In this document: positions 1,214 through 48,159 of the stretch, piece by piece
How the letters are laid out: every line of letters begins with the position of its first letter
How positions within the stretch are numbered: position 1 is the first letter of the stretch
Source: Bacteroidota bacterium
GTDB lineage: Bacteria; Bacteroidota; Ignavibacteria; Kapaibacteriales; Kapaibacteriaceae
Length of the DNA stretch: 64,000 bases
NCBI GenBank assembly: GCA_039795225.1
Contig: JBDKEN010000001.1
Span: 21,610-85,609 of the forward strand
Reading direction: 5' to 3'
The notes under the pieces: model-generated
Told to the model about the DNA's origin: nothing
The model's database searches: none
Seen by the model: only the letters and a program-made list of their open reading frames with translations
Program-made: the position numbers and the translations under genes

Positions 1214-1248
1214 TGGGTACAGGGTACAAGGTACTGGGTACTGGGTAC
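1214..1248 (+). repeat. Heptamer array A1, 5 units (strand = strand on which units read NNNKKAC)
   Basis: TGGGTAC AGGGTAC AAGGTAC TGGGTAC TGGGTAC. GTAC recurs at 1217, 1224, 1231, 1238 and 1245. Starts 12 nt after the hsdR stop. Confidence 0.9.
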
Positions 1249-1303
1249 ACACATTACGACACCCACACAAGACGTTCGCATCCCATCCCCATACTTCAGC
1301 CCT

Positions 1304-1327
1304 GGGCGGGAAGGGGGCGGGGCAGGG
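1304..1327 (+). other. G-quadruplex-type motif GGGCGGGAAGGGGGCGGGGCAGGG
   Basis: Five G3+ runs separated by 1-2 nt loops in the hsdR/DUF2130 intergenic region. Confidence 0.4.
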
Positions 1328-1394
1328 ATGTTTGCCAGCAGGGGCAGGGAAGCCTCAAGCTGAGCAGTATGGGAGGACATTAACCGTTAGCATG

Positions 1395-1408
1395 GAGGAA
1401 GCTTCCTC
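1395..1408. promoter_or_regulatory. Perfect 14-bp palindrome GAGGAAGCTTCCTC upstream of the DUF2130 gene
   Basis: Read directly. Centred 78 nt upstream of the ATG at 1480. Confidence 0.3.
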
Positions 1409-1479
1409 AGACCAGCCCCTTGCGACAACGTTCATCAACCGGTACCCGTATCTTCGAATTCCTGAAGAAAGACACCGCT

Positions 1480-2820
1480 ATGCACGATATCATTTGTCCC
1501 CATTGTCATACAGCGTTTAAGATCGATGAGTCTGGTTACGCCGACATCCTCAAGCAGGTGCGTGATACCGACTTTGAAAAGCAGATTGCCGAGCGCTTGG
1601 CCATTGCCGAAAAGGAGAAAGAAAGTGCTGTCAATCTTACGAAGGCGCAATCCGAGATTGCCCTCAAGAGCAGTCTTGCTGAAAAGGAAGCGCAGATCTC
1701 GGCACTGAAGTCAAAGGTTGATAGCATCGAAATGGAGCGTCAACTTGCAGTGACCATGGCTACGCGAGATCTTGAATCTGAGCGTGACAAGCTGGCCAGT
1801 GAAATTGACCTGTTGAAGAAGCAGATGCAAAGTGCTGTTGATCTGGCACAGGCAACCTTCAAGAATGAGCTGCAGCAAACAGCGAGTGCCAAGGAGAGTC
1901 AGATCCAGTCGTTAAAGAATGATATTGAACGACTCACACTTGCGCAGGAGCTTGCCGAAACGTCGCTGCGCGAGCGCTATGAAGCTCAGCTCAAGGATCG
2001 TGATGCGGCAATCGAACGGCTGCGAGACATGAAGGCCAAGCTCTCCACCAAGATGGTCGGTGAAACCCTCGAACAACACTGCGAGATTGAATTTAATCGC
2101 ATTCGCGCCACTGCTTTCCCCCGGGCGTACTTCGAAAAGGACACCGATGCCCGCACAGGCAGTAAAGGCGATTACATCTTTCGCGATTACGATGAGTCCG
2201 GCACCGAAATCGTCTCCATCATGTTCGAGATGAAGAATGAGGCGGACCTCACGGCGACCAAGAAGAAGAACGAGGACTTCCTCAAAGAACTCGACAAGGA
2301 TCGAGCAGAGAAGAGTTGTGAGTACGCTGTGCTCGTGTCACTGCTCGAGCCAGAGAATGAACTCTACAACACCGGTATCGTCGACATGTTCTACCGCTAC
2401 CCGAAAATGTACGTTGTGCGTCCACAGTTCTTCATCCCGATCATTACGTTGCTTCGGAATGCCGCCATGAACTCGCTCAAATACAAGTCGGAACTTTCTC
2501 TTGTGAAGGCCCAGAACATCGACATCACCAACTTCGAAGAGGACCTCGAGAGCTTCAAGGACGCCTTCAAGCGGAACTACGACCTTGCCTCGAAGAAGTT
2601 CAAGGATGCGATCGACGAAATCGATAAGTCCATCAATCACTTGCAAAAGACCAAGGAAGCCCTGCTCGGTACCGATCGTAATCTCCGACTGGCAAATGAT
2701 AAGGCCCAGGATGTGACTATCAAAAAGCTCACGCGCGGCAACCCAACAATGGCCGCGAAGTTTGCCGAGGTCAAGAATGTCCCGAAGAATGATGCGTCAT
2801 CACCCGAGCCCCACGACTAA
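1480..2820 (+). CDS. DUF2130-like protein: N-terminal CxxC zinc ribbon, long coiled coil, C-terminal PD-(D/E)xK-like region
   Basis: ATG at 1480 ([26 protein letters not shown]) is preferred over the TTG at 1420. The middle is E/K/Q/L-rich coiled coil. GDYIFRD...SIMFEMKNE resembles a D...ExK core. Family assignment is from memory. Confidence 0.6.
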
Positions 2821-2846
2821 AACGCTCTCATCCATCCTCCTAATTT

Positions 2847-2937
2847 GTTCTTCGTAATTCGTACTTCGTAATTGGTACTTCGGAATTGGTCCTTCGTAAT
2901 TCGTACTTCGTAATTCGTACTTCGTAATTCGTCCCAG
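2847..2937 (-). repeat. Heptamer array A2, 13 units, 14-bp super-period
   Basis: The plus strand reads GTTCTTC GTAATTC GTACTTC GTAATTG GTACTTC GGAATTG GTCCTTC (GTAATTC GTACTTC)x2 GTAATTC GTCCCAG. Ends 8 nt from the stop of the minus-strand gene 2946..5216. Confidence 0.95.
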
Positions 2938-2945
2938 CGGCCTTC

Positions 2946-5216
2946 TCACTTGATATGATAGATCCTTATCGCTGAACTTGCGTCGTATGGTGAAACACCT
3001 TGTAGGTCCTCGTCGATTATGGCAGCGAGCTTCGAGCCATCGCCGCTAAAGCTAAATGCTTCCGGGTAACTCCTTGCTGTTCCGACTGGGAGGGGACGTA
3101 GAAGTCGCTGTGATCGAAGATCAATGAGAGCTGCGGGAACACCCTTGTTATGTGACCAAGTAACATACTGCGCATCATTGGCTGAGAACGCCATCACAGT
3201 ATCTCCTGTAGTGCGTGAGATCTCGGCACCGGTTGTCATATCCACTAACCATGTCGTGAAATACGATATGGAGACTAGCCCCTGAATCGCCACAATCTTA
3301 CCTGACTGTGACAGCATTTTAGCTCTGGGGTAATAGCGAGGGTCTGCCAATGTATCCGGACGCCAGGTGAAACTTCGAACTGTACCGCCAGTTGTGATGT
3401 CGATAGTATAGAGTGTCACGGGATTAAATGTCTCAAAAACAGCGAGCGTGTTACCCTGCATCCCCATAAAGCCAGCTATTTTACCGTCAAATTGATTTAA
3501 AGGTATTGTGCGGCGTAAGGTGCCAGATGCAACGTCATATTCATCCATGCGGTCCCGTTCCGTGACGTATACCGTTGAGCCGTCCGAGGTTGCGTGGTGC
3601 CTACCAGGAGCTGATATTGTCGAAACAACCTCGCCTGTGCCTGCATTATAGATCGTAGTCTTGGCACCTGTGGACACAGCAATTCGCGAATCGGCAGCTA
3701 CAAAGCGAATGGAAGAGAAGCGCTCCTGAGTCCATTGTCTGTCTGTTCTCCAGAGCTGCGTACCAGTTGACGCATCAAAGACAAAGACCTCTTGCCACCC
3801 CGTGAATAACGCGACGCGCGAGCCATCGGAGTTCAGCGCAATATTCTGGGCCCAACTACCCAAGGGTAGTTTGAACTCTGTAAATGCTGTTCCAATTCCG
3901 CCGCAGGCCTTGAGATTTCCTGCATTGTACAGAGTTCCGCCAGTGATCGGTGATACCGCGGTCGAGGTAATTGTCCGTCCGTTCGTACTATACCCTTCGA
4001 GGGTGAGTGCGACACCAGCGGGCACCGTAACGCGAATCTTCCCGGTGGTTGATGAGGCGACCTTCACACCCGTTGGCGTGACAACCTGCACGAAGCCACC
4101 GATCGGTGCATCATTGCAATCCACGATCTGTGCCTCCAGAAGCGTCGGACATGGCGAAACGACGATGTTCTTACGAAACGTCTGGTTTTCTGCAATCGGA
4201 CCAACAGTCACCGGTGATGAGGACATGCCCTCGTTACCGCGTGCGCGAACCTGCACATCGAACGCTACGTCTGCCGGTACAAGCCGGCGATACATTCCAT
4301 CTTGATCGGTAATGACACTCACTTGCCCGATATCAACCGTGATGCCTGCAAGAGGGATGTTCTGGCCACATGTTACACGACCTTCGATAAAGGCTCGGCG
4401 AGCTCTCGGAACATCAAGATTCCAGTCCGTAAAGTGCGTTACGGTTCCAACGTACTGTCCGCCCGAAAGCGTAGCCTTCCCTTCCTCAACCCAGATACCC
4501 TGCTTTTCATCGAAATGCCAGAGTGGTATCTCCGACATGGAGGCACCGGCAGCAGGATACGTAAGGTTAGCGACAGCCCCCTTCGCGAGGTTAAGGGGCT
4601 GCCCCTGCGACCCCGTCAGGAGAACACGAAGAACGCCGTACGAAACAAGTTCTGTCGATGAACCATCAGCGCGCAGTGCGGCCATATCTCCTGAAAAGCT
4701 GTCATAGAAGTTTGCCGACTGTGGATCCAGATATCGTGCGGCCACAGAGACCGTTCCGGAGTAGCTGTTACCCTGAGCATCGATGTAGCCGTTCGCCGGC
4801 AGGTCAATGCTAGCAGCTCCAAGTGTTACCAGACCACCACTGGAGGCATTGATCGTCTTGATCTGCTTCGCTTCCTGGAGCGTCAACAGCATAGTTGTGA
4901 CCTTACCAGCCGATGGATAGGCGGCCCTTGCCCCGGTGAAATACCCGCTCTTGCGAACGGTTATCACCGCACGTGTTGATGGAACCGTCACGTTCTGAAG
5001 AACGAACACTCCGTTCCCATTGGTCGTCGTTGAGGTGCCATGACCGCTGACAACTGCCCCTTGAACAGACTTCCCTTCCTCGTCAACAACGCGACCGGTG
5101 ATCGTCGTGCGAACGGTTTCCGCGTAATCACCTTGGGCCGGGTCAGAGACGGAGTTACATCCCGTAAGCGCGGCAAATACAATTACTGTAAGAACAACAC
5201 GGAGCATAAAAGCCAT
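2946..5216 (-). CDS. Large lipoprotein with carboxypeptidase-regulatory-like beta-sandwich domains and a C-terminal propeller-like region
   Basis: ATG at 5216 is preceded by GGAGG with a 5-nt spacer. MAFMLRVVLTVIVFAALTGC is a signal peptide plus lipobox. ITGRVVDEEGKSVQGAVV and IEGRVTCGQNIPLAGITV are CarboxypepD_reg-like segments. No T9SS CTD is present. Confidence 0.6.
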   Translation of the reverse strand: MAFMLRVVLTVIVFAALTGCNSVSDPAQGDYAETVRTTITGRVVDEEGKSVQGAVVSGHGTSTTTNGNGVFVLQNVTVPSTRAVITVRKSGYFTGARAAYPSAGKVTTMLLTLQEAKQIKTINASSGGLVTLGAASIDLPANGYIDAQGNSYSGTVSVAARYLDPQSANFYDSFSGDMAALRADGSSTELVSYGVLRVLLTGSQGQPLNLAKGAVANLTYPAAGASMSEIPLWHFDEKQGIWVEEGKATLSGGQYVGTVTHFTDWNLDVPRARRAFIEGRVTCGQNIPLAGITVDIGQVSVITDQDGMYRRLVPADVAFDVQVRARGNEGMSSSPVTVGPIAENQTFRKNIVVSPCPTLLEAQIVDCNDAPIGGFVQVVTPTGVKVASSTTGKIRVTVPAGVALTLEGYSTNGRTITSTAVSPITGGTLYNAGNLKACGGIGTAFTEFKLPLGSWAQNIALNSDGSRVALFTGWQEVFVFDASTGTQLWRTDRQWTQERFSSIRFVAADSRIAVSTGAKTTIYNAGTGEVVSTISAPGRHHATSDGSTVYVTERDRMDEYDVASGTLRRTIPLNQFDGKIAGFMGMQGNTLAVFETFNPVTLYTIDITTGGTVRSFTWRPDTLADPRYYPRAKMLSQSGKIVAIQGLVSISYFTTWLVDMTTGAEISRTTGDTVMAFSANDAQYVTWSHNKGVPAALIDLRSQRLLRPLPVGTARSYPEAFSFSGDGSKLAAIIDEDLQGVSPYDASSAIRIYHIK

Positions 5217-5221
5217 GGCAA

Positions 5222-5226
5222 CCTCC
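5222..5226 (-). promoter_or_regulatory. Shine-Dalgarno-like GGAGG, 5 nt upstream of the ATG at 5216
   Basis: The minus strand reads GGAGG TTGCC ATG. This contrasts with the box-abutted starts elsewhere in the window. Confidence 0.4.
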
Positions 5227-5530
5227 GATAACATTTGATATAGATAATGAGCTGCTTGTTGATTCTGGTCGCAGCACCAGCCAGACAACCGAGATGCTCC
5301 GAGTCAACCCCACGGTAGACGGAGTCGAGATTTCACAGACGTATGCTATAGCCAACAACGACGATTACATGGTCCACCTTGTCTTACTGACAAGTGTGCT
5401 TGGGCAACTTAGGACTCTTTTCCAAATGCCAAACGATTACTACCGAAAAGTATTACTCAAAATTCTTTCCGGGGTAGCGCCAGACGTCCGGCGTGTGCAG
5501 GATTCCGGATAATGCGGGGACAACCACCTC

Positions 5531-5579
5531 GTCATTCGTACTTCGTCATTCGTACTTCGTAATTGGTACTTCGTACCCT
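5531..5579 (-). repeat. Heptamer array A3, 7 units
   Basis: GTCATTC GTACTTC GTCATTC GTACTTC GTAATTG GTACTTC GTACCCT. Ends 28 nt before the kynA ATG. Confidence 0.95.
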
Positions 5580-5595
5580 ATACCGCTCCTCTCCG

Positions 5596-5603
5596 TAATT
5601 TCG
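5596..5603 (+). promoter_or_regulatory. -10/-7-like box TAATTTCG, 4 nt before the kynA ATG (leaderless-type geometry)
   Basis: Read directly: TAATTTCG GCGC ATG. Confidence 0.35.
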
Positions 5604-5607
5604 GCGC

Positions 5608-6681
5608 ATGCTCTATTACTCTGAATATCTCGCCCTTGATGCCGTTCTCAACGCTCAACATCTGGAGAGTGCCAAGCATGGTGCGCCTGCGCATGAAGAG
5701 ATGTTGTTTATCATCACGCACCAGACATTTGAACTGTGGTTTAAGCAGGTGCTCTTCGAGGTCGACTCGGTAATCCAGTTGTTAGACCGGGAGTATGTGC
5801 CGGAGGCGGATGTTGCGGTGTGCCTTTCGCGGATTCAACGCGTTAATCGAATCATGGAGCACCTGGCCTCGCAGTTTACGTTGATCGAAACCATGACGCC
5901 GGGCGAGTTCATGGAGTTCCGTGCATTCTTGAATCCTGCCAGCGGGTTTCAGTCAGTGCAATGGCGTGTACTGGAGCGCACCCTGGGATTGCCCGAGACA
6001 AAGCGCGTTCTGCGGCACTACACCGAGCCATTCACACCGGAGCAACTCAAGCAGCTCGATGATGCAAGCAATCGGACAACGCTCTTTGCAGCCGTGCAGC
6101 GGTGGCTTGAGCAGATGCCATTCATGGAGCATGGCACCTATGCATTCTGGGATGCCTACAAGCAATCGGTAACCGCGATGCTCGACAACGACCGACGCGA
6201 AGTACGACGTCTGTCTGAAGCTGAGCACACCGATCCAACGCGCGCGCTCGAACAGATTGACGCCAATGAAAAGGGCTTCCTTGGACTCTTTGATGCAGAT
6301 GCCTATGCCGAGCTGCAGACGCAGGGAATTCGTCGACTCTCGCAGCGGGCAACACTGGCGACACTGTTCATTTCGACATATCGGGATCGTCCCTTGCTGC
6401 AGATACCCTATCGATTTGTGGATGCAATCATCGAACTCGACCGTCTTGTTTCGCTCTGGCGCTACCGGCATACCATGATGGTGAGTCGAATGATCGGCAT
6501 GCGCGTCGGGACAGGGGGCTCAAGTGGTCACGACTATTTGATGCAGACAACGGTGCGCCAGCGAGTCTTCGATGATCTGACGTCGCTTTCGTCCTATCTC
6601 GTTTCGCCGCAGCACACACCTGTGCTCCCAGCGGAGATCGAGTCGCGTCTGCAGTTTGTTAACGAAGCGTCCAAGGGCTAG
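5608..6681 (+). CDS. kynA: Tryptophan 2,3-dioxygenase family protein
   Basis: YSEYLALDAVLNAQ, HEEMLFIITHQTFELWFKQ, SGFQSVQWR and WRYRHTMMVSRMIGMRVGTGGSSGHDYL match conserved TDO blocks. Confidence 0.75.
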   Translation: MLYYSEYLALDAVLNAQHLESAKHGAPAHEEMLFIITHQTFELWFKQVLFEVDSVIQLLDREYVPEADVAVCLSRIQRVNRIMEHLASQFTLIETMTPGEFMEFRAFLNPASGFQSVQWRVLERTLGLPETKRVLRHYTEPFTPEQLKQLDDASNRTTLFAAVQRWLEQMPFMEHGTYAFWDAYKQSVTAMLDNDRREVRRLSEAEHTDPTRALEQIDANEKGFLGLFDADAYAELQTQGIRRLSQRATLATLFISTYRDRPLLQIPYRFVDAIIELDRLVSLWRYRHTMMVSRMIGMRVGTGGSSGHDYLMQTTVRQRVFDDLTSLSSYLVSPQHTPVLPAEIESRLQFVNEASKG

Positions 6682-6691
6682 AGTCGCGCTC

Positions 6692-6715
6692 GTTCCATGA
6701 GCATGCTCATGGAAC
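6692..6715. promoter_or_regulatory. Perfect 24-bp palindrome GTTCCATGAGCATGCTCATGGAAC spanning the comF start codon
   Basis: Each half is the exact reverse complement of the other. Contains ATGs at 6697, 6703 and 6709, all in the comF frame. Confidence 0.4.
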
Positions 6716-7431
6716 CAATGAAGACGCTTCTCCGATCGGTCATTCGCGTCATTAATGACGTCGTCTTTCCACGCCACTGCCTGCTCTCAGGTGTCCACCT
6801 GCACGAGCCACCTGTGCTCGTGCCCGGGATTTCCGATACAGCGCTTGCGGCGGAAACCGTTGCCCCATACGGAGCGGCCCTCGAGGTTCTGATTCAACGT
6901 CACTTCGAGCCAGACGATTTCATGCTTTCGCGTGTTTCCTCCTGCTGGACATTGGACCGAAGCTCACGAATTGATGCGGCTATCTATGCGATCAAGTACG
7001 GCGGGCGCACATCCCTGGCAACGCACCTCGGCGCGCTCATGGCAGGTCATATTGATATGGCCGACCTCGATGCTTCGGCAATCATCGCGGCCGTGCCAAT
7101 CCATCGGGCACGACAGCGCGAACGAGGGTATAATCAAGCGTCGTTCCTTGCCGCTGGCCTAGCCGGTGCGCTCAATCGGGCGTTACTCGAGGAGGGTGTG
7201 ATCATTCGCCGGCGCTACACACCAACCCAAACGTCACTTGACCAGCAACACCGCTATCGCAATGTGCAGGATGCCTTCGTTGTGCGCGACCCTTCGATGG
7301 TCAAGGGGCGCACCATCGTCCTTGTCGACGATGTCCTAACCACGGGGGCGACCATCAACGCCTGCGCAACGGCGCTTGTCGAGGCCGGAGCACGACGCGT
7401 GGATGCCATCACTGTCTGTGTTGCCGTGTGA
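6697..7431 (+). CDS. comF: ComF-family phosphoribosyltransferase-domain protein
   Basis: RERGYNQASFLA plus the PRTase motif IVLVDDVLTTGATINA near the C-terminus, the typical ComF/GntX layout. Confidence 0.75.
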   Translation: MSMLMEPMKTLLRSVIRVINDVVFPRHCLLSGVHLHEPPVLVPGISDTALAAETVAPYGAALEVLIQRHFEPDDFMLSRVSSCWTLDRSSRIDAAIYAIKYGGRTSLATHLGALMAGHIDMADLDASAIIAAVPIHRARQRERGYNQASFLAAGLAGALNRALLEEGVIIRRRYTPTQTSLDQQHRYRNVQDAFVVRDPSMVKGRTIVLVDDVLTTGATINACATALVEAGARRVDAITVCVAV

Positions 7432-7460
7432 GAGCTTCATTCCAGAAGTCCGTCTCGCAG

Positions 7461-7468
7461 TAACTTCG
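7461..7468 (+). promoter_or_regulatory. -10/-7-like box TAACTTCG, 4 nt before the pepP ATG
   Basis: TAACTTCG CTTC ATG. Confidence 0.35.
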
Positions 7469-7472
7469 CTTC

Positions 7473-8879
7473 ATGATCTACTCCTTCGTTCGACACAGAT
7501 CCGCCGTTACAGCGCTGCTGGTGCTGTTCGCTTCTCTTGGTGCGATATCACAGACCTTTCCGTATGAAGTGTTCGATGACGACCTGCCCCCTGCCTCGGT
7601 TTACAAAGAGCGTCGCGAGCGACTCTTGCAGCAGATGGCTCCGCGGACGATGTGCGTTGTTCTATCGGCCGACGTCCGCAATCGTCAGAACGACGTTGAC
7701 TTCGAGTACCGTCAGAGCTCAGACATGCTCTACCTCTGTGGATCGCCTACACCAGCGTCCACCTTGGTGCTGATCAAGGACGGGGTCGTGATCAATGGAC
7801 GTCGACTTCGAGAAATCTTGTTCATTCCCGAGCGGAAGCCCGATCGCGAAGTATGGCAAGGTGTCGCCATGGGACCACTTGAGGCGATGCAGCATCTTGG
7901 CGTTGACACTGCGATTGCGACGAAGGACATGCGCGCACTCCTGGATAGCATGATCGTGCGTACCGACACGCTTCTCGTCTCAACCCTTCCAACACGCGCG
8001 CTCAACGTGCCCCTTGCCGGGAAGAATCTCTACAGTGAAGGAGAGATGAAGCGCTGGCTCAAGGAGCTCAACCCATCATGCATCTTGAAGACGCCAATCT
8101 CCTACCTCAGGGCCATGCGCGAGGTCAAGGACAGTGCCGAGCTTCGCTTGATGCGCATGGCAATCGACATCAGCATCGAAGGTCACTTGGCAACCATGAA
8201 GGGGGCTCGCCCCGGAATGAAGGAATACGAGCTTGAAGCACTCATGGAGTACGGCTTCAAGCGTCGTGGTGCACAAGATGTCGGCTATCCTTCGATCGTT
8301 GGCTCGAACTATAACGCCTGCATTCTCCACTACACGGCGAACCGTCGAACGACGAGTATCAACGACCTCGTGCTGGCAGATTGTGGTGCCGAGTATCATG
8401 GGTACACGGCGGACATCACGCGAACCTTTCCCCTGACCGGGTCGTTCACCAAGGAACAACGCCTGATCTACGACATCGTCCTTGAAGCGCAGGATTCAGG
8501 CATCGCCGCATCACGTCTCGGTAGCCCCTTTCGTGCACCGCACCAGGCCGCGCTCGACGTCATCCAGCGTCGCCTGATGGAACTGGGCATCACCGCGGCA
8601 CCGGAACAAGCATCGGACTACTTCATTCACGGGACCTCCCATTATTTAGGACTCGATGTCCACGATCCCGGCACCGGTGGACCACTCAAAGCCAACAGCA
8701 TCATCACCGTCGAGCCAGGCATCTACATCCCCGCCGGCTCACCCTGTGATAAACGGTGGTGGAATATCGGCATCCGCATCGAAGACGACATCCTCATCAC
8801 CCCCACCGGCCCCGTAAACCTCTCAGCAGCATTGCCCCGCAAGGCGGCTGATATTGAAGCGTTGATGAAACGAGAGTAG
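7473..8879 (+). CDS. pepP: Xaa-Pro aminopeptidase (M24B)
   Basis: N-terminal AMP_N-like region. Metal-ligand blocks LADCGAEYHGYTADITRT, HGTSHYLGLDVHD, VEPGIYIP and GIRIEDDILIT. Confidence 0.8.
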   Translation: MIYSFVRHRSAVTALLVLFASLGAISQTFPYEVFDDDLPPASVYKERRERLLQQMAPRTMCVVLSADVRNRQNDVDFEYRQSSDMLYLCGSPTPASTLVLIKDGVVINGRRLREILFIPERKPDREVWQGVAMGPLEAMQHLGVDTAIATKDMRALLDSMIVRTDTLLVSTLPTRALNVPLAGKNLYSEGEMKRWLKELNPSCILKTPISYLRAMREVKDSAELRLMRMAIDISIEGHLATMKGARPGMKEYELEALMEYGFKRRGAQDVGYPSIVGSNYNACILHYTANRRTTSINDLVLADCGAEYHGYTADITRTFPLTGSFTKEQRLIYDIVLEAQDSGIAASRLGSPFRAPHQAALDVIQRRLMELGITAAPEQASDYFIHGTSHYLGLDVHDPGTGGPLKANSIITVEPGIYIPAGSPCDKRWWNIGIRIEDDILITPTGPVNLSAALPRKAADIEALMKRE

Positions 8880-8884
8880 GGGCG

Positions 8885-8954
8885 CAATTACCAATTACCA
8901 ATTACCAATTACCAAGTACCAAGTACCAATTACGAATGACTAATGGCAAAGTAC
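8885..8954 (+). repeat. Heptamer array A4, 10 units
   Basis: CAATTAC x4, CAAGTAC x2, CAATTAC, GAATGAC, TAATGGC, AAAGTAC. Starts 5 nt after the pepP stop. Confidence 0.95.
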
Positions 8955-9022
8955 GTCAACAATGTACGCTGACTGCTTCGTCATAGGTTTGACGAGGTCC
9001 TTGATTGGGGACATTATTCACG

Positions 9023-9141
9023 GTCCTTGGTAATTCGTACTTGGTAATTAGTAATTCGTACTTGGTAATTGGTAATTCGTACTTGTTAACTGGTAATTCG
9101 TACTTAGTAATTGGTAATTGGCAATTCGTACTTGGTAACTT
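9023..9141 (-). repeat. Heptamer array A5, 17 units, 21-bp super-period
   Basis: GTCCTTG then four triplets (GTAATTC GTACTTG GTAATTN-like) over 9030-9113, then GTAATTG GCAATTC GTACTTG GTAACTT. Ends 5 nt before the glmM ATG. Reverse complement of A4 unit types. Confidence 0.95.
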
Positions 9142-9143
9142 GC
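9136..9143 (+). promoter_or_regulatory. -10/-7-like box TAACTTGC, 3 nt before the glmM ATG; it is also the last unit of array A5
   Basis: GTAACTTGC CCC ATG. Confidence 0.3.
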
Positions 9144-9146
9144 CCC

Positions 9147-10490
9147 ATGTTCATCCGATCAATTTCTGGGCTACGAGCCACGCTTGGTGATGACCTGACG
9201 CCGGCGGTTGTTGCGAGATATGCGGAAGCCTTTAGTGCAATCCTCCCCAATGGGCCGATCGTTGTTGGTCGAGACGGGCGTCCGAGTGGACTGTGGATAG
9301 AGCAGGTTCTCATTGGTGCACTCCGTGCATGTGGCCGTACGGTGCGTCATCTTGGTATGATGCCAACGCCAACGGTGCAGCTACTGACGGAGCATTCCGA
9401 TGCTGTGGGTGGTATTTCCATTACTGCATCGCATAACCCGGCACCGTGGAATGGCTTGAAGTTTGTTGACGCTGGCGGCGTTTTTCTTGATGCTGACGGT
9501 AATGCGCAACTCTGGGAGGCGGCCGATGCAGCATCGGCGAACCGTTCATCCGAGCAGCAAGCAGGTATTCTTGAGCAGATTGATGATGCCGCGGCGCGAC
9601 ACGTTGATGTTGTGCTTGCACTTGAGGCAGTGTCCACAGCACCGAGTGCGAACGGTGAGACAGTAGTTGTTGATGCGGTCAACTGCTCTGGGTCATTCAT
9701 CGTGCCGCTCTTGCTCGAGCGGATGGGGTATCGGGTTGTTCGCTTGTTTGCCGATGGATCGGGGATCTTCCCACATACGCCTGAGCCCCTTGCAGAAAAT
9801 TTAACGGAGCTCGGTCGCGCCGTTGTTGCGCACGGCGCCATCATGGGCGTTGCCGTTGATCCGGATGCGGACCGGCTTGTGCTCTTTGATCGGCACGGGA
9901 CGCCCATTGGCGAAGAACGGACGGTTGCATTGGCTGCACGAGCTGTGCTCTTGCACGGACACCTGGGCTCGGTCGTAGTCAACTTCTCGACATCTCGAAT
10001 GGTTGACGATGTGGCGGCGGAATTCGGTCAACAGGTTGAACGTGCACCGGTGGGTGAAATCAATGTTGTTCGTCGGATGCAGGAGCTCTCGGCCGTGATT
10101 GGCGGCGAAGGTAGCGGTGGTGTCATCTACCCGGCATGCCATGCCGGACGTGACAGTCTGGTTGGACTTGCTTTAATCAGTGCAATGCTGCGTCGAAGCG
10201 GCACAACTCTGGATGACGTCTGTGCTGCGATCCCCTCCTACACGATGATCAAGACGAAGTTTGATCTCGCCTCGCGGGAGCAGATGACCAGCATAACGCA
10301 GCGGATCGTTGCACTGCACGGAGAACATATCGCCTCGACGGCTGATGGCATCTATCTGCGCTGGCCGCAGAGCTGGCTGCATGTGCGTGCTTCGAACACC
10401 GAGCCGATCATGCGCGTGATTGCCGAGGCACCAACGCCCGAAGAGGCCACATCGCTTGTGGAATCGATCACGGCGCTGATCCATGGCTAG
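9147..10490 (+). CDS. glmM: Phosphoglucosamine mutase / phosphohexomutase
   Basis: ATG at 9147 (MFIRSISGLRATLG, a Bacteroidetes-type GlmM N-terminus). Phosphoserine loop ITASHNPAPWNGLKF, metal loop GVAVDPDADR, sugar loop GGEGSGG. The upstream part of the listed ORF is heptamer-array read-through. Confidence 0.7.
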   Translation: MFIRSISGLRATLGDDLTPAVVARYAEAFSAILPNGPIVVGRDGRPSGLWIEQVLIGALRACGRTVRHLGMMPTPTVQLLTEHSDAVGGISITASHNPAPWNGLKFVDAGGVFLDADGNAQLWEAADAASANRSSEQQAGILEQIDDAAARHVDVVLALEAVSTAPSANGETVVVDAVNCSGSFIVPLLLERMGYRVVRLFADGSGIFPHTPEPLAENLTELGRAVVAHGAIMGVAVDPDADRLVLFDRHGTPIGEERTVALAARAVLLHGHLGSVVVNFSTSRMVDDVAAEFGQQVERAPVGEINVVRRMQELSAVIGGEGSGGVIYPACHAGRDSLVGLALISAMLRRSGTTLDDVCAAIPSYTMIKTKFDLASREQMTSITQRIVALHGEHIASTADGIYLRWPQSWLHVRASNTEPIMRVIAEAPTPEEATSLVESITALIHG

Positions 10491-13400
10491 CCCCTTTACC
10501 ACAAACTCTCTTGGACATGCACGTCATGTCCTCTCGCTTTGTCTCCATGCCGCAACTGGGAAGGGGGCTTCGCGAACAACGATCGAGGAGTTTACGAGTG
10601 TTGAAGGAACATTCCGTGTCTTGAAGGACGCCGAGACGCAGCGGACGCTTGCCGTCGTGGACGCGATTCCACCATCAGAGAGCCCCTTCGATGATGTCCC
10701 CCGCGACAAGCTGCGCTCCATTGCCACGCGTGTCCAGGCCCCGTATGTTATTCTGACGAATCTCCGCCGCGTTGTTACCTACCGCACGGAAGGTGTTCTC
10801 AAGCGTCTACCCGACGAACAGCATACGGTGGGATGGCACAATGCGTCGGATGTGCGATCTGTTGAGGATGCTGACTCCTCGGGCATGCAGGTGGGGATTA
10901 TCGCAGCGCTGCGTCAAGCTATTCAATGGCTTGACATTGACGCATCACTGCGTCCAGAACAACGCGTCATTGATGCATCAGCATTCTTCTCGGAACGTGT
11001 ACTTTCGATGTTTGATGATCTGGTCTCATGCTGTGAGAGCGGTGTGCAGCAGCGTGACGCCACGCTGCGCCTCGGAACGAGTATCCTGGCCTATGTGCTC
11101 ATGCATGTGCGTGATCGAAGCAACCTCGATCGGTTGTCACTCCCCTACGGCCTTGGCAGTGCTCGACTGATGACGGATCTAGTTGGTGCGTACTTCCGTC
11201 AAGCACGTCGGCTCGGACACACGATGCTTCCGGAATCGGTCGAAGATGTGCAGATCCTGCCGCACCGCGAGGGTGTGTTCCGCATGACGCTATCGGATCT
11301 GATCAACTTCTTGCATCGGTTTGATCCTGAACGTCTGAGTGATAATGACCTGCATCGCGCCGTTGATGCTGTCCTGCAGCGATGCTCGCGCATCGCACGC
11401 GCATCGGTGCCGACCATCGATGCGTTGGACCTTGCCTTGCGGATGGTTGCGCGCACGCGCGAACTGCGTGATGTCGCCGATCACGATCGTCATCGACTAC
11501 TGGAGATCGGGCAGACGCAGGGCCTTGCCAGCGTCCGCCACCTGCTGATGTCGGGTGGTGTTCCCTGTGAGGCACGAGTCTATGCACGCACGGCCGAGGA
11601 CGAGCGCGCCATCGTGCTTCGGTCATCAGGCCGCATTGGCTTTGATGCCGACGTGCAGATTCTTCGCGAAACGCGCGCCGTTCGAAGTCCATGGGATATG
11701 GTCGTCGCAACAACTACAGATGTACGGGAACGCCACCGTCTGCGCCTGCTGCTTGAGCGTCTCCCGCTCGACCCTGATGGTGTTGTCGTGCTCTTCCTAC
11801 CGATCTCGGCGCTGCATGACGAGCGCTATGCACTGGTGCGACAAACACTCATGGCACGCTTTAGTATCGAGTGGCTCGTTGTCAGCGATGCCGAAGCTCT
11901 GGCAGAGCCAGACACGGGAGTGTGCTTCATTGTCGCACGGGTGGCATCAGAAGATGACGTTGATCATCCCGCCCGATGCGTCTACCTACGTCGTCCCATT
12001 GCCGCATTCTTCCCTTCATCACGTGCCTCGCGTGATCTTGAGCAGGATCGTCTGCGAGCGCTGGACACCTTCGTGAAGTATCTCGATGCCTCTCGCCATG
12101 GGAAGCTGAACGACGAAGCCGTTGTGCGGATGGTACCGCAGGACCATCTGCGTCGCGACCCTGTGTGGGAGGACTTTCTCGTGCCGCCCGATGTGCTGAG
12201 CTCGATCCTTACCAAAACCCTCCCCCACATTCGGCCGCTACGCTCCATCGCTGACGTGTCAGGGGGCATGCGCACGGGCGCCTTTGATGTATTTGCTCCG
12301 GATACACAGACGATTGCCTCGGACGATCTCGAAAACACCTTCTGGCAGCGGATTGCTGATGATGGAAGCGTCATCGACAACTACGTTCTCACGACGAGTG
12401 ATGACATCGACTCCATGAGTGGTCTGCCTCGCACGGATCGGCGACTATTGCTGATCCCCAAAGATCGTTCGCAGATCTCTGGTACGAATGTGCTCACACG
12501 CATTGAGAAGGCAGAACGTGAAGGCGTACACCTGCGCGCATCGATGCGGCATGCCACAGAGTGGTGGCACCTACAGCCCCCTCAGCCGCCGCATCTCGTT
12601 ATTCCGAAACAACAGGATCGACGCTGGGTTGTTGCCGTGAACAGCCTACGTGCATACGTCAGCGATGCATTCGTCTGCATCACGCTGCGCCAGCCGGCCG
12701 ATGCCGAGCGTATCGGGTTGTGGATGAATTCCACCATTGGCGTATTCCTCAGCGAGTTGCTCCGTCAGGATCTGCATGTGCAGAACATCACGGTGCGTGA
12801 TGCACAAGAATTCCCGATTGCCGATGATGCTCTGTTGTCAAAGCTTGATCCGGCGCATTTTACGGGGCTCGCACGACGTCGCGTGAGCACCCTCGATGAT
12901 GAGTTTGGTGCCGTCTCCTATGATAGCATCAGGCCAGAGACCATTCTGCGCGATCGTCGCAAACTTGATGCGGCGATCATGACCGATCTGCTGGGCCTAA
13001 CTGAAGAAGAACAGCGCTGGGTGTACCGATTCGCCTATGCGTGGTGGTCACGGACGTCGAACGTTCGGCACATCGCCAACGCCATTGTGTATGATCTGGA
13101 ACATCGGCAGAAGGTAAAGCCACTACGTGCCTGGTATTGGCCACGCATTAATCAGCTCCCACTTGGTGCCCGTCGCGAGATTATTCTCGATTCCCCTGCA
13201 GAGTCAACGGAGGTGACGCCAACAATGTTTGGATGGCAGGTGCGGATCTCGCACACCCATGATGACCTTGTGCTTGAGGCTAGCACTGGGGAAGAGGCGG
13301 AGATCATTGGCCTCTTTGTCCGCCTTGGTGCCGTATCGATGGAGATCCCAATCGACACTATTCTCATTGCGGGTCTGCTTCCGCAACTGCGAGACTTTGT

Positions 13401-14586: not shown

Positions 14587-14589
14587 CCG

Positions 14590-20439: not shown

Positions 20440-20495
20440 TTTGGGGTTTGGGGTTTGGGGTTTGGGGTTTGGGGTTTGGGGTGTGAGGTTTGGGG
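20440..20495 (+). repeat. Heptamer array A6: (TTTGGGG)6 TGTGAGG TTTGGGG, a G-quadruplex-type tract
   Basis: Read directly. Starts 1 nt after the TAG of 19767..20438 and ends 19 nt from the xth stop (convergent gene ends). The last sense codons upstream include GAAGTAC. Confidence 0.95.
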
Positions 20496-37438: not shown

Positions 37439-37475
37439 TGTCGTCCTCGGTGAATGCGACCGGAGGCTAGCCCCC

Positions 37476-38867: not shown

Positions 38868-38958
38868 GACGTGTAATCGTGATGAAGTGATGTGATAGAC
38901 AATGATGTAATGATGCGGTTATCAAGGGACCGGACAGTGCAAAACTACGTCAAGGGGC

Positions 38959-44406: not shown

Positions 44407-44410
44407 TCTG

Positions 44411-44418
44411 CAAACTTC
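44411..44418 (-). promoter_or_regulatory. -7-like box GAAGTTTG, 4 nt before the ATG of the RND adaptor gene
   Basis: The minus strand reads GAAGTTTG CAGA ATG. Confidence 0.25.
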
Positions 44419-44507
44419 GGCAAATTTTCCCATGCTATTTTTGCGCCTGCTTCGTCTTGGTCTGCGCCCAAGGTTGATTCTTTCACCACGCTTCGAGGAT
44501 TAGCACG

Positions 44508-44843
44508 ATGCGAACATGTCTCCTGGTTATTGCCACCCTGCTCCTGCCACTTACGTTGCTTGCAGCGGAACAAAAAGTCACCCTGAAAGTTGCCGGCAAC
44601 TGCGGCTCCTGCAAAAAGCGAATCGTCAAGGCCGCTGAGTCGATCGACGGTGTGAGCGACGCTGCATGGGATAAGAAGACGAAGACCTTCACCGCTGTCT
44701 ATGACGACGCAAAAGCTACACCTGAAGCAATCAAGAAGGCTATCGCTGCCGCTGGATACGACGCAGAAGACGTCAAGGGCAACGATGAGGCCTACAGCAA
44801 GCTTCCAGACTGCTGCCGATATCGTGACGGATCACACGATTGA
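44508..44843 (+). CDS. Secreted heavy-metal-associated (HMA) domain protein
   Basis: Signal peptide, then VTLKVAGNCGSCKKRIVKAAESIDGV (CxxC ferredoxin-like HMA fold) and a C-terminal LPDCCRY cysteine pair. Divergent from the RND operon. Confidence 0.65.
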   Translation: MRTCLLVIATLLLPLTLLAAEQKVTLKVAGNCGSCKKRIVKAAESIDGVSDAAWDKKTKTFTAVYDDAKATPEAIKKAIAAAGYDAEDVKGNDEAYSKLPDCCRYRDGSHD

Positions 44844-44855
44844 AGACTGGGTATC

Positions 44856-44946
44856 CAACGACCAATTACAAATGACCAATGACAAAGTACAATTGGCCAA
44901 TGACGAATGACCAATGACGAATGACCAGTGACGAATGACCAATGAC
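44856..44946 (+). repeat. Heptamer array A7, 13 units
   Basis: CAACGAC CAATTAC AAATGAC CAATGAC AAAGTAC AATTGGC CAATGAC GAATGAC CAATGAC GAATGAC CAGTGAC GAATGAC CAATGAC. Starts 12 nt after the HMA gene stop. Confidence 0.95.
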
Positions 44947-44977
44947 GAGTGGAGTCTCGCATCGGCGGGAACGAAGA

Positions 44978-45012
44978 ACACCTCACACCTCACACCCCAA
45001 ACCTGAAACCTG
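44978..45012 (-). repeat. Heptamer array A7b, 5 units, C-rich on the plus strand (complement resembles A6)
   Basis: ACACCTC ACACCTC ACACCCC AAACCTG AAACCTG. The complement reads CAGGTTT CAGGTTT GGGGTGT GAGGTGT GAGGTGT. Ends 4 nt before the gcvP ATG. Confidence 0.85.
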
Positions 45013-45016
45013 TTCC

Positions 45017-47875
45017 ATGCATCGCGACATTTTTGAACATCGCCACCACGGACTTTCACAATCTGACATTCAGGCCATGCTGGCTGCTGTTGATGCATCG
45101 AGCATCGACCAGCTTGTTGAGCAGACCGTACCGTCGCAGATCCGGCTTGAGAAGCCCCTTGACCTGCCGTTGCCGCTGACGGAGATCGAGATGCTTGCCG
45201 AATTGAAGTCGATCGCAGCCACCAACTCGGTTGCTCGGTCCTACATCGGCATGGGGTATTATGACACGGTCACACCGCCTGTGATTCTCCGAAACCTCAT
45301 CGAGAATCCAGGATGGTACACGCAGTACACGCCCTACCAGGCAGAGATTGCGCAGGGCCGTTTGGAAAGCCTGTTGAACTTCCAGACGCTGGTGACAGAC
45401 CTGACCAAGATGGATATTGCCGGGGCTTCGCTACTCGACGAAGGCACGGCTGCAGCTGAAGCCATGCATATGACATTCGCTGCGCGCGGCGCGGCGGTGA
45501 AGTCGGCAAACACAATGTTCGTCGACGCAAATGTCTTCCCGCAAACCCTGGAGGTGATTCGCACTCGTGCAACACCATTGGGAATCAACGTTGTTGTCGG
45601 CGATTGGAAGAGCGTCGAGTTTGATGGTACAATTTTCGGTGCCTATGTCCAGTACCCAGCTGGCGACGGTTCTGTTGAAGACTACACGGCGTTCTGTGAG
45701 CGAGCTCATGCAGGGGGCGCGTTGGTAACAGTCGGTACGGACCTCATGGCCCTGACGCATCTCACACCACCGGGTGAGTTTGGTGCAGACGTCGCTGTCG
45801 GCACAGCGCAACGATTGGGCGTGCCATTGGGATATGGTGGACCGCATGCAGCCTTCTTGGCAACGCGTGAGGCATACAAGCGTATCATTCCGGGTCGCAT
45901 TATTGGCGTCAGCGTCGATGCTCAAGGGAATCTGGCTCTGCGCATGGCCCTGCAAACGCGTGAGCAACACATCCGTCGTGACAAGGCGACGTCGAACATT
46001 TGTACGGCGCAGGCGTTGCTGGCAAATGTCTCGGCGATGTATGCCGTGTATCACGGTCCTGATGGACTGCGTGGCATCGCCCATCGTATTCACACGCTCA
46101 CCTCAGCGCTGGCCTCGGGGCTCACATCCCTCGGGTATAGCACCTGTAACATTTCATGGTTTGACACGCTGTGCGTCTGTGCTGATCCAGCTGCTGTGCG
46201 CGCAGTCTTTGAGCCACGGCTTATCAATCTGCGCTACCGCACAGATTGTGCGTGCGTTGGTGTTTCGCTTGACGAGACGACAACGGTTCCCGATGTACAA
46301 GACATCCTTGATGCCTTTGCAGCCGTCAAGGGAGCTTCGGCACCTCATGTTGCCGATCTTCTGCACACGGCGACGAGCGGCCTCCCGGCCTCACTCGTGC
46401 GGACCTCGAGCTATCTCACACATCCGGTATTTAACAGTTATCACACCGAACACGAGATGCTACGCTACATGAAGCGTCTCGAGAACAAAGACCTGTCTCT
46501 CACGCATTCGATGATCTCCCTGGGCTCGTGCACCATGAAGCTCAACGCAACGGCGGAGATGATCCCAATCACCTGGCCTGAGTTCAATCGTATTCATCCA
46601 TTTGCGCCCCTCTCACAGACGCAGGGGTATCAGCGCATTTTCTCTGAGCTGAGCACATGGCTGAATGAAATCACAGGATTTGATGCATGCTCCCTGCAGC
46701 CGAATGCAGGTGCACAGGGCGAGTATGCTGGACTATTGGCAATCCGCGGATTCCATCATGCACGGGGCGAGCAGCACCGCAATGTGGTGCTTATCCCCTC
46801 GTCTGCCCATGGCACCAATCCAGCGTCGGCCGTCATGGCCGGCATGAAGGTTGTTGTCGTCAAGAGCGATGCTCATGGTCATGTCGACGTCGATGATCTG
46901 CGCGCACAGGCAGAAGCAAACTCGGCGAATCTTGCAGCGCTGATGGTAACATACCCGTCAACGCACGGCGTATTTGAGGAGGCCATCAAGGACATCTGCG
47001 CCATTGTGCATCAGCACGGTGGACGTGTTTACATGGACGGAGCAAACATGAATGCCCAGGTGGGCTTGACGTCACCACGCGCCATCGGCGCTGATGTATG
47101 CCACCTCAACCTCCACAAGACGTTCTGTATTCCACACGGAGGGGGCGGTCCAGGAATGGGTCCGATCTGCTGCACGGCAGAGCTCGCCCCGTACCTGCCA
47201 TCACATCCCGTCATCAACCCGATCGATGTCGAGCATGTCGGGCCGGTATCCGCTGCTCCTTGGGGCTCGGCATCCATTCTGCTCATCTCATGGGCATACA
47301 TCCGGATGATGGGCGGTGAAGGTCTGACGAATGCAACCAAGCGTGCTATTCTGAATGCGAACTACATCAAGAGTCGCATCGAACAGCATTATCCGATCCT
47401 CTATACCGGCACAAACGGACGCTGCGCCCACGAGATGATCGTGGACCTGCGCGAGTTCAAGCAGCGCGGTGGCATCGAAGCAGAAGATGTTGCAAAGCGC
47501 ATGATGGACTACGGATACCACGCGCCGACACTCAGCTTCCCTGTCCCAGGCACGATCATGATCGAGCCCACAGAGAGCGAGAGCAAGGCCGAACTGGACC
47601 GGTTCATCGAAATGCTCCTTTCCATTCGTACCGAAATTGAGAGTGTGTGCAGTGGCGCAATTGATGCCAAGGACAACCCGCTCAAGAATGCCCCGCACAC
47701 CATGTTCGTTGTCACTGCCGATACGTGGGAACACACGTACTCACGTCAGACTGCCGCATTCCCACTTCCATGGGTGCGTGATCGGAAGTTCTGGCCATCC
47801 ATCGGCCGGGTCGACAACGCTCATGGCGATCGCGTGCTCATTTGCACGTGTCCGTCGATCGAAGAATACGCGTGA
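45017..47875 (+). CDS. gcvP: Glycine dehydrogenase (decarboxylating), single-chain P protein
   Basis: ATG at 45017 ([12 protein letters not shown]) gives 952 aa. PLP-lysine block [18 protein letters not shown]. The upstream part of the listed ORF is repeat-array read-through. Confidence 0.95.
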
Positions 47876-47878
47876 GTT

Positions 47879-47955
47879 TGGGTACTGGGTACGAAGTACA
47901 AATGACGAAGTACGAAGTACCAATGACGAAGTACGAAGTACCAATGACGAAGTAC
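47879..47955 (+). repeat. Heptamer array A8, 11 units, 21-bp super-period
   Basis: TGGGTAC TGGGTAC GAAGTAC AAATGAC (GAAGTAC GAAGTAC CAATGAC)x2 GAAGTAC. Starts 3 nt after the gcvP stop. Confidence 0.95.
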
Positions 47956-48068
47956 TTTGCTTGGGTTTGGTGTCCTGCCTTCGCGGGCATGGTTATGGCG
48001 TTCCAGGTTCAACCGTAATAGCGTAGTTCCCGAACTCTGTGGATCGCTACATACTTGCTCATGCAAGC

Positions 48069-48159
48069 GTACCTGGTCATAAGTAATTCGTCCTTGGTAA
48101 TTCGTCCTTGGTAATTCGTCCTTGGTAACTCGTCCTTGGTGATCCGTCATCGGTAATTC
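48069..48159 (-). repeat. Heptamer array A9, 13 units, 14-bp super-period
   Basis: GTACCTG GTCATAA (GTAATTC GTCCTTG)x3 GTAACTC GTCCTTG GTGATCC GTCATCG GTAATTC. Ends 16 nt before the hrpB ATG. Confidence 0.95.

Follow-up and report, generated by a model that had tools for sequence, protein, structure and literature searches.

Heptanucleotide arrays have been known in cyanobacteria since 1990, when Mazel reportedly described short tandemly repeated repetitive (STRR) sequences with the units CCCCAGT (STRR1), TTGGTCA (STRR2), and CAACAGT (STRR3). Here we analyzed ten arrays of 7-bp units in a 64,000-nt stretch of DNA from a Bacteroidota bacterium (Kapaibacteriaceae; GenBank assembly GCA_039795225.1, contig JBDKEN010000001.1, forward-strand positions 21,610 to 85,609), hereafter called the window, to which coordinates refer unless a strain contig (L number) is named. 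These arrays are heptanucleotide simple-sequence repeats (SSRs) of the STRR or long-SSR (LSSR) kind and not a new type of element; new here are the host lineage and a well-organized instance of a known but unexplained class. Worth note are the sharing of units across phyla, a general polarity rule, and the concerted replacement of paired array arms between strains of 98-99% identity.

In most prokaryotic genomes no long simple repeat is as abundant as the heptanucleotide, and polymerase slippage has been proposed as its origin (Mrazek et al. 2007, as cited in PMC4679880). Intergenic TAACTGA arrays just upstream of start codons without a Shine-Dalgarno sequence were described in Beggiatoaceae, 15 Cyanobacteria, and five Bacteroidetes, with mixed units in up to 43 copies, 7-nt indels between strains, and contig breaks (MacGregor 2015, PMC4679880). 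In the GGGNATC heptamers of Xanthomonas and Nostoc, the G-rich strand is the coding one where an array follows a stop codon within 50 bp, and the non-coding one where it precedes a start; these heptamers are transcribed, are commoner between co-directional genes, and vary among close relatives, and no regulatory role was found for them (Rehm et al. 2015, PMC4692102). Between hupS and hupL, 7-bp STRR hairpins were proposed to act in transcript stabilization or translation coupling (PMC2670836). Nostoc heptamers beside recF and recO alter reporter expression, with a binding partner merely postulated, and families of four to five tandem heptanucleotides in Geobacter metallireducens are annotated as putative regulatory elements. 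A literal search of the literature for the array-unit sequences of the window gave no match. A first-pass annotation, made from the letters of the window, had chosen the cyanobacterial STRRs as the nearest comparison, and rightly so, given that cyanobacteria carry the same main units and that a hairpin arrangement is described at hupS-hupL (PMC2670836). Its statement that no equivalent was known in the Fibrobacterota-Chlorobiota-Bacteroidota (FCB) group was wrong, since intergenic heptamer arrays occur in the five Bacteroidetes of MacGregor 2015 (PMC4679880). An FCB-group host itself is corroborated, as the window proteins are deposited under 'Bacteroidota bacterium' (RL594_*) and a tryptophan dioxygenase of >90% identity belongs to a Candidatus Kapabacteria bacterium.

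Using Tandem Repeats Finder on the 64-kb window, we recovered ten period-7 arrays, some with 14- or 21-nt superperiods, and 0% indels in each, and reading them in 7-base register gave 5, 13, 7, 10, 17, 8, 13, 5, 11, and 13 units, which amount to 102 units and 714 bp, in agreement with the count and positions of the first-pass annotation. The arrays, and the centre of the first inverted pair, are as follows.

Array 1, 1214 to 1248, minus strand: (TGGGTAC)x5 as read on the plus strand, 12 nt after the stop of a type I restriction R-subunit gene (17 to 1201, plus strand).
Array 2, 2847 to 2937, plus strand: 13 units of GTAATTC, GTACTTC, and GTAATTG with a 14-nt superperiod, between convergent genes, 26 nt past the DUF2130 stop (2820), with a minus-strand 780-aa gene on the other side whose stop (2946) is 8 nt away.
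Array 3, 5531 to 5579, plus strand: 7 units of GTCATTC, GTACTTC, and GTAATTG, 28 nt upstream of the tryptophan 2,3-dioxygenase start (5608).
Array 4, 8885 to 8954, minus strand: left arm of pair 1, ten CAATTAC and CAAGTAC units on the plus strand, 5 nt past the Xaa-Pro aminopeptidase stop (8879).
Pair 1 centre, 8955 to 9022, no strand assigned: 68 nt of single-copy DNA between arrays 4 and 5, the predicted hairpin loop.
Array 5, 9023 to 9141, plus strand: right arm of pair 1, 17 units of GTAATTC, GTACTTG, and GTAATTG with a 21-nt superperiod, 5 nt before the phosphoglucomutase ATG (9147).
Array 6, 20440 to 20495, plus strand: (TTTGGGG)x8, 1 nt past the stop of the open reading frame (ORF) 19668 to 20438, between convergent genes.
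Array 7, 44856 to 44946, minus strand: 13 units of CAATGAC and GAATGAC on the plus strand, 12 nt past the stop of the HMA-domain gene (44843).
Array 8, 44978 to 45012, plus strand: three ACACCTC units then two AAACCTG units, ending 4 nt before the gcvP ATG (45017).
Array 9, 47879 to 47955, minus strand: left arm of pair 2, two TGGGTAC units then GAAGTAC and CAATGAC in 21-nt blocks, 3 nt past the gcvP stop (47875).
Array 10, 48069 to 48159, plus strand: right arm of pair 2, 14-nt blocks of (GTAATTC GTCCTTG), 16 nt before the hrpB ATG (48176).

In a self-match scan of periods 4 to 15, period 7 gave 15 segments (665 bp), period 14 gave 16, and any other period gave 0 or 1; across the 64-kb window, enrichment was restricted to period 7 and its multiples 14 and 21. 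One degenerate unit, GTMMTTS (reverse complement SAAKKAC), builds eight of the ten arrays at six junctions, in the variants GTAATTC, GTACTTC, GTAATTG, GTACTTG, GTCATTC, GTCATTG, and GTCCTTG. The window contains 42 two-unit GTMMTTS matches, where shuffling predicts 0.01, and 22 four-unit matches, of which 100 shuffles produced none; every match of either kind is inside an array. The other units are TGGGTAC, TTTGGGG, and ACACCTC/AAACCTG, and since TGGGTAC stands in register with GAAGTAC in array 9, it belongs to a GTAC-NNN relative of the GTMMTTS family. Higher-order repeats of 14 nt, for example (GTAATTC GTCCTTG)n, make up arrays 2 and 10 and those of 21 nt make up arrays 5 and 9, at 86-97% identity; these 14- and 21-nt blocks fit growth by several units at once. 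The first-pass description of the arrays was accurate but missed this higher-order structure, as well as the inverted pairing and the polarity rule presented below. GTMMTTS arrays are A+T-rich, with 34-45% G+C versus 56% for the window. The arrays were present identically in independent JGI, ENA, NCBI, and Logan assemblies; they are not the artefact of one assembler. Short-read contigs often stop within an array, and L216 and L217, for instance, break off inside array 2.

Gene starts were corrected via Pfam matches and strain gene calls before the arrays were placed. The true phosphoglucomutase start is 9147 (Pfam alignment and 447-aa strain gene calls) and the true gcvP start is 45017 (952-aa strain gene calls), so the overlap of these two long ORFs with arrays is only apparent. 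With the corrected starts every array proved to be intergenic, as had been claimed, and no array was found in the 61.5 kb of coding DNA of the window; the spacing given earlier, 1-12 nt past a stop or 4-28 nt short of a start, likewise held. Intergenic DNA comprises 2,448 bp (3.8% of the window), of which the 714 bp of arrays take up 29%, and the spacer lengths minus arrays are 20-132 bp. The earlier remark that the last 16 kb contain no array is also correct, and this is because hardly any intergenic space exists there (83 plus 34 bp). Array-flanking genes are functionally unrelated (restriction subunit/DUF2130, peptidase/phosphoglucomutase, HMA/gcvP/hrpB), and the tightly packed gene runs (operons) of the window carry no arrays. 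The arrays thus probably mark transcription-unit boundaries.

A Shine-Dalgarno sequence was absent at every array-adjacent start inspected. The gcvP leader consists of a nearly G-free, A/C-rich array both in the window (44978 to 45016) and in a relative (L136:2448-2500), with different units (ACACCTC/AAACCTG versus AAAACCY), and ACACCTC resembles the 16S rRNA 3′ end, i.e., the anti-Shine-Dalgarno strand, and not a Shine-Dalgarno site. A nearly G-free leader of this kind fits Shine-Dalgarno-independent translation initiation. Gene calling went astray at several arrays (window 44785-44910, 9111-9146, and 44942-45016; L001:822-1040): a 41-aa ORF was called across array 7 (44785 to 44910), and one assembly has a phosphoglucomutase call that is 70 codons too short. 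ORFs listed mechanically run through arrays with SAAKKAC on the sense strand, which is free of stop codons in every frame; GTAATTS arrays have TAA in all three frames. The practical cost of the arrays is that they break short-read assemblies and mislead gene callers.

Comparison of orthologous junctions, which had been suggested as a check, revealed unit-number variation in exact 7-, 14-, and 21-nt steps. At the HMA-gcvP junction, nine contigs encode an identical HMA protein, and the seven of them that span the junction have spacers of 152, 166, 173, or 187 nt, i.e., −21, −7, 0, or +14 relative to the window. Array 7 has three units fewer in one strain and two more in another, and in L134 (TGGGTAC)x7 takes the place of its first half, where a flanking 'ctgggtatc' lies; the ACACCTC array (array 8) is unchanged across the junction-spanning strain contigs. 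Between the window and JGI contig Ga0451703_0000019 there were 0 substitutions over 5 kb and a 70-nt difference lying wholly in arrays 9 and 10, and the JGI contigs L127 (7872-8230) and L129 have two extra 21-nt blocks in array 9 and two extra 14-nt blocks in array 10; this length difference reflects either population variation or repeat collapse in one assembly. Array 3 is kept in strain L126 with one substitution, and at the peptidase-phosphoglucomutase junction of the same strain the mixed array of the window is matched by a pure run of CAATTAC, at least 8 units long. In L125, the flanking genes are 98.4-99.1% identical to those of the window, and the whole peptidase-phosphoglucomutase junction is different: the stop is followed by (TGGGTAC)x5, a 48-nt centre unrelated to the 68-nt centre of the window, and (GTACCCA)x8 leading to the start, in 157 bp versus 267 bp in the window. 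Both arms have switched unit together and are still complementary, with architecture and polarity retained.

In a more distant relative, L136, whose GcvP is 94% identical in protein and ~81% in DNA, arrays lie at both orthologous junctions with other units and lengths. Upstream of gcvP, ~33 units of CGATGAC/GAATGAC are followed by (AAAACCY)x6 before the start codon, and directly past the gcvP stop (L136:5360-5455) lies an octamer array, (GAATTACG)x11, with 16- and 32-nt superperiods. The octamer GAATTACG is GAATTAC with a G added, so the lineage is not bound to period 7; the strict 7-bp register asserted in the first-pass annotation thus stands for the window, with its 0% indels, and fails for the lineage. 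These data indicated that the presence of arrays persists at junctions while their sequence, length, and even period turn over. Distant bacteria with a GcvP ~60% identical to that of the window have AAAATCG-family heptamer arrays inside a single gcvP ORF (L174:3805-3845 and 4635-4683; also L175, L185, and L205), at two variable surface loops around aa 462 and aa 739, and in L174 (CGAAAAT)x4 is found in both loops and encodes RKSKIEN twice. Heptamer arrays can colonize coding loops because three units equal seven codons.

One genome per species was scanned with four GTMMTTS units; counts for foreign loci, here and below, are those among the matches listed, and taxon counts therefore represent an arbitrary sample and not a census. 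GTMMTTS arrays were found at at least 120 loci in at least 8 phyla. About half of the listed loci are cyanobacterial (Nostoc, Calothrix, Fischerella, Anabaena, Microcoleus, and Coleofasciculus), the listed Bacteroidota hosts are Saprospiraceae, Lewinellaceae, Mucilaginibacter, Hymenobacteraceae, and Ignavibacteriales, and further listed hosts belong to Planctomycetota, Verrucomicrobiota, Acidobacteriota, Chloroflexota, and a few Proteobacteria. The listed loci hold 415 period-7 arrays in 871 kb, indicating that they come from array-rich genomes, and their commonest canonical units, AATTACC, AATTACG, AATGACC, and AATGACG, are those of the window. In a control of 79 unselected metagenome gcvP loci (~530 kb), period 7 was the commonest among periods 5-11, and the GTMMTTN family accounted for 2 of 32 arrays.

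All ten window arrays share one polarity, in that the ..KKAC or G-rich reading runs 5′ to 3′ away from the nearest gene. After stops, the sense strand reads CAATTAC, GAAGTAC, CAATGAC, TGGGTAC, or TTTGGGG; before starts, it is the complement, GTAATTC and relatives or ACACCTC, and the G-rich or ..KKAC reading is antisense. A first rule, according to which GTMMTTS points to the nearer gene, failed overall in the 120 foreign loci (20:45 among the matches listed). Split by taxon, it held for arrays after stops in non-cyanobacteria (20:7) and not in cyanobacteria (12:18), and the near-start GTMMTTS class is biased because the reverse orientation, which has no stop codons, allows ORFs to run on too far. 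In its published form, as a rule on the G-rich strand, the polarity holds broadly: among the listed heptamer arrays with a G/C skew, this strand has its 5′ end towards the nearer gene in 91 of 113 at cyanobacterial loci (p = 4e-11) and in 28 of 41 in other phyla (p = 0.03), and the stop-adjacent skewed arrays alone, a subset free of bias from crude ORF calls in foreign loci, gave 40:14 (cyanobacteria) and 15:6 (others) in favour of the rule. The polarity itself is beyond what slippage alone explains.

At two co-directional junctions (8880-9146 and 47876-48175), a left SAAKKAC array faces a right GTMMTTS array across a single-copy centre of 68 nt (pair 1) or 113 nt (pair 2). The predicted RNA fold of the pair 1 junction has −98.5 kcal/mol (z = −8.2) and that of the pair 2 junction −102.6 kcal/mol (z = −4.2), and the L125 junction is predicted to form an almost perfect 43-bp stem with −99.7 kcal/mol (z = −13.0). 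A cross-pairing test covered four junctions, and at three of them the left arm paired better with the right arm of its own junction than with any other (chance ~0.05). Elsewhere, among the matches listed, 11 inverted GTMMTTS pairs have the arrangement of the window versus 5 with the opposite one. Right arms continue into GCCCCATG or CCATAAC, without T runs, and intrinsic terminators were ruled out at the arrays, as no G+C-rich stem with a T run is present (terminator scan of 1-10000); the first-pass annotation had judged likewise that the arrays are not classical terminators. Sigma-70 promoters were also rejected, with hit counts at shuffle level and none on an array; the sole nearby hit is one weak −35/−10 match in the pair 1 centre (8989-9017), and the scan covered sigma-70-type promoters, with Bacteroidota-type promoters outside its coverage. 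No Rfam 15 match at gathering score was found in the whole window, and ARAGORN found no tRNA or tmRNA in it.

The STRRs are among the closest described systems. STRR2 (TTGGTCA) is GTCATTG rotated, and CAATGAC, found in arrays 7 and 9, has GTCATTG as its reverse complement; the reverse complement of TGGGTAC is GTACCCA, which on rotation gives ACCCAGT, one base away from STRR1 (CCCCAGT). The canonical STRR1, STRR2, and STRR3 units form no pure tandem dimers in the window; CAATGAC is frequent in arrays 7 and 9, interleaved with GAATGAC or GAAGTAC, and the canonical unit AATGACC also occurs in 18 cyanobacterial arrays among the matches listed. Shared with the STRRs are head-to-tail 7-nt units, many dispersed and strain-variable intergenic arrays, identical GTMMTTS units in Calothrix, Nostoc, Fischerella, and Anabaena loci, and inverted arrays between co-directional genes that form hairpins at hupS-hupL (PMC2670836) and are predicted to do so here. 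In contrast, the host is a Kapabacteria-like Bacteroidota and not a (heterocystous) cyanobacterium, and the window arrays mix units in 14- and 21-nt higher-order blocks. Like the long SSRs of Mrazek et al., with 5-11-nt units, the arrays run far beyond chance, prefer heptamers and non-coding DNA, and are distributed sporadically, and they change by whole units between relatives, with the caveat of possible assembly collapse; the long SSRs, however, are a statistical class for which the cited account gives no sequence family, polarity, or inverted pairing.

The TAACTGA arrays of MacGregor resemble those of the window in being intergenic, in FCB-group hosts, before Shine-Dalgarno-less starts, long and mixed, with 7-nt indels and contig breaks. 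The window differs, as more of its arrays lie after stops than before starts and its inverted pairs are prominent, while such pairs are rare among the TAACTGA arrays (one indirect repeat); TAACTGA dimers number 0 on either strand of the window. With the GGGNATC/GGGGAYT heptamers of Rehm et al. the arrays share the G-rich polarity rule, enrichment between co-directional genes, and variation between close relatives. Unlike them, most window arrays are A+T-rich and cannot form a G-quadruplex (G4), and no four-unit preference was seen; the GGGNATC unit is absent from the window. Array 6, with at least four tracts of three or more G spaced by 7 nt, matches the G4 regular expression at 20443-20467 and the other nine arrays do not, with G4 folding being predicted from sequence only. 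A second G-quadruplex-type motif, GGGCGGGAAGGGGGCGGGGCAGGG (1304 to 1327, plus strand), is not a tandem heptamer; it is found in the long spacer that follows array 1. Repetitive extragenic palindromic (REP) sequences, bacterial interspersed mosaic elements, and terminators are likewise intergenic, at gene 3′ ends, and hairpin-capable, and a boundary role is plausible for each; REPs, however, are 20-40-nt imperfect palindromes of conserved sequence, as opposed to 7-nt tandem arrays, and terminators combine a short G+C-rich stem with a T run, a combination absent from the arrays. CRISPR arrays, which the earlier annotation had also discounted, were ruled out, since they consist of 23-50-nt repeats alternating with unique spacers of about that length, and the 7-nt units abut directly in no repeat-spacer arrangement.

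Some neighbouring features deserve mention. Defence-type genes lie beside arrays, namely a type I restriction R subunit (C-terminal part) with a DUF2130 protein after it (17 to 2820), and a 1006-aa Eco57I-like type IIG enzyme adjoining arrays (10483 to 13503). The genes downstream of DUF2130 differ in assembly GCA_041447075.1, and from this sequence comparison array 2 may border a variable island. Within a 1420-aa minus-strand ORF (59680 to 63942) lies a tandem repeat of 375 bp (2.3 copies, 74% matches; 61791 to 62635), which suggests a large protein with repeated domains.

We reasoned that the arrays are slippage-driven STRR/LSSR arrays at transcription-unit boundaries with a putative hairpin or untranslated-leader role, a reading to which we assign a probability of roughly 0.45. 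An array would be seeded from a 7-nt sequence beside a gene end, a step directly supported by the TGGGTAC units at the flanking 'ctgggtatc' in L134, and would then grow, shrink, and change its units in 7-, 14-, or 21-nt blocks through slipped-strand mispairing or unequal exchange. Frame disruption, as 7 is not a multiple of 3, would exclude arrays from coding DNA, and template switching between the arms, or selection for pairing, may keep the arms complementary. At paired junctions, read-through RNA or extruded DNA is computed to fold into a long imperfect hairpin. Past stops, the hairpin or array could protect 3′ ends and make read-through transcripts stall or cap them; before starts, the array could provide the next gene with an A+T-rich or A/C-rich leader that has no Shine-Dalgarno sequence. 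The arrays would thus be tolerated as boundary elements and probably also put to use as such, which would match what has been proposed, never proven, for the cyanobacterial STRR hairpins.

Several observations weigh against this reading. Simple slippage does not explain a unit family that recurs at eight loci and across phyla, nor why L125 has an entirely different single-copy centre, and some of the length differences between assemblies could be short-read repeat collapse instead of polymorphism. Half of the arrays are unpaired; the pair 2 arms match poorly (z = −4.2, own partner not best); and no T run follows a hairpin stem, with a terminator scan of 1-10000 placing no site on an array and giving overall no more hits than shuffled sequence. 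The GTMMTTS polarity was not seen in cyanobacteria (12:18 among the matches listed), genes at foreign loci are crude longest-ORF calls, and we infer every functional step.

A possible, though on balance doubtful, alternative keeps the same slippage origin and dispenses with function, making the arrays neutral or mildly selfish filler that builds up where selection is weak and whose hairpins and polarity are by-products of mutation or of purifying selection against orientations that do harm. Unit number, sequence, and even period change between close relatives, an extreme turnover that such filler would show; the spacers minus arrays are merely 20-132 bp, the adjacent genes have unrelated housekeeping functions, and Rehm et al. 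found no regulatory role for their heptamers (PMC4692102). Yet arrays stay at the same junctions down to 94% protein identity despite the turnover, both L125 arms changed unit together, the unit family recurs across phyla, and the polarity is strong (10 of 10 in the window and 91 of 113 in cyanobacteria among the matches listed). The arrays may also be tandem sites for a single-stranded nucleic-acid-binding protein with a 7-nt footprint, a cold-shock-domain protein being the best candidate, or ribosomal protein S1, that controls read-through and Shine-Dalgarno-independent translation by coating the GUMMUUS leader strand and melting or locking hairpins, an account we consider unlikely. Each CspB molecule of Bacillus subtilis binds a single heptanucleotide, with the consensus 5′-GTCTTTG/T-3′ (PMC1904285), which shares G1, T2, T5, T6, and partly C3 and G7 with GTMMTTS; MacGregor independently proposed cold-shock protein (Csp) or S1 for TAACTGA arrays (PMC4679880); all three pre-start GTMMTTS arrays put GUMMUUS on the mRNA strand, before starts that on inspection had no Shine-Dalgarno sequence; and a conserved protein would explain the recurrence of units across phyla. 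However, CspB strongly prefers T at position 4, where the units have A or C (PMC1904285), and a resemblance of this degree is estimated to arise by chance in a few percent of cases, given 14 registers and strands. Moreover, unit families differ within one genome (TTTGGGG, ACACCTC, TGGGTAC), a relative carries an 8-mer array, and the orientation of GTMMTTS to genes is not fixed in cyanobacteria among the matches listed. The broader proposal that GTMMTTS and other units of the same polarity constitute a cis-acting code across phyla, read by a conserved single-stranded nucleic-acid-binding protein of the oligonucleotide/oligosaccharide-binding fold, with a cold-shock-domain protein as the candidate, one per unit on the RNAs that run into or out of genes, is a long shot. 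If true, paired arrays would be protein-controlled hairpin switches at transcription-unit boundaries in bacteria making little use of Shine-Dalgarno sequences, and fixed polarity and concerted two-arm change would be signatures of a protein-read function.

That the arrays are phase-variation switches, whose unit number alters promoter spacing or leader structure and so toggles the neighbours, appears very improbable. Unit number does differ between co-existing strains in exact 7-nt steps, and Haemophilus is reported to have intergenic SSRs that can work as such switches (PMC12721329); the neighbours, however, are housekeeping genes (gcvP, phosphoglucomutase, tryptophan dioxygenase, hrpB) and not surface or restriction-modification contingency genes, most arrays sit after stop codons, and Rehm (PMC4692102) and MacGregor (PMC4679880) were likewise negative for their repeats. 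Lowest of all we rate an origin from remnants or termini of mobile elements (miniature inverted-repeat transposable elements, REP-like or small dispersed repeats) or from repeats added to broken ends by a repeat-synthesizing enzyme. The swap of a whole junction cassette between 98-99% identical strains, the inverted arms, and a distant genome in which a single gene has the same unit at two sites apart from each other would accord with it, as would the outward 5′ to 3′ course of the ..KKAC or G-rich strand, as if added to the 3′ ends of a break, which together with the TTTGGGG unit is telomere-like. Against it, the non-array centres are single-copy, mutually unrelated, and match only their own orthologous positions (window plus 216 loci), no target-site duplications and no transposase or reverse transcriptase were found beside any array, and slippage predicts just such stepwise variation by 7, 14, or 21 nt. 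That the arrays are pieces of a single mobile element, which the first-pass annotation had already doubted, was rejected for the DNA examined, because the array-free parts are single-copy.

The arrays of the window provide a compact, clean example of heptamer arrays in a phylum very different from the cyanobacteria; they occupy 29% of the intergenic DNA of the window with a single polarity and some inverted pairs, and co-existing strains differ only at the arrays. A unit family common to Cyanobacteria, Planctomycetota, Verrucomicrobiota, Acidobacteria, and Chloroflexota points to a property of the polymerase or a conserved binding protein, and not to lineage-specific history.

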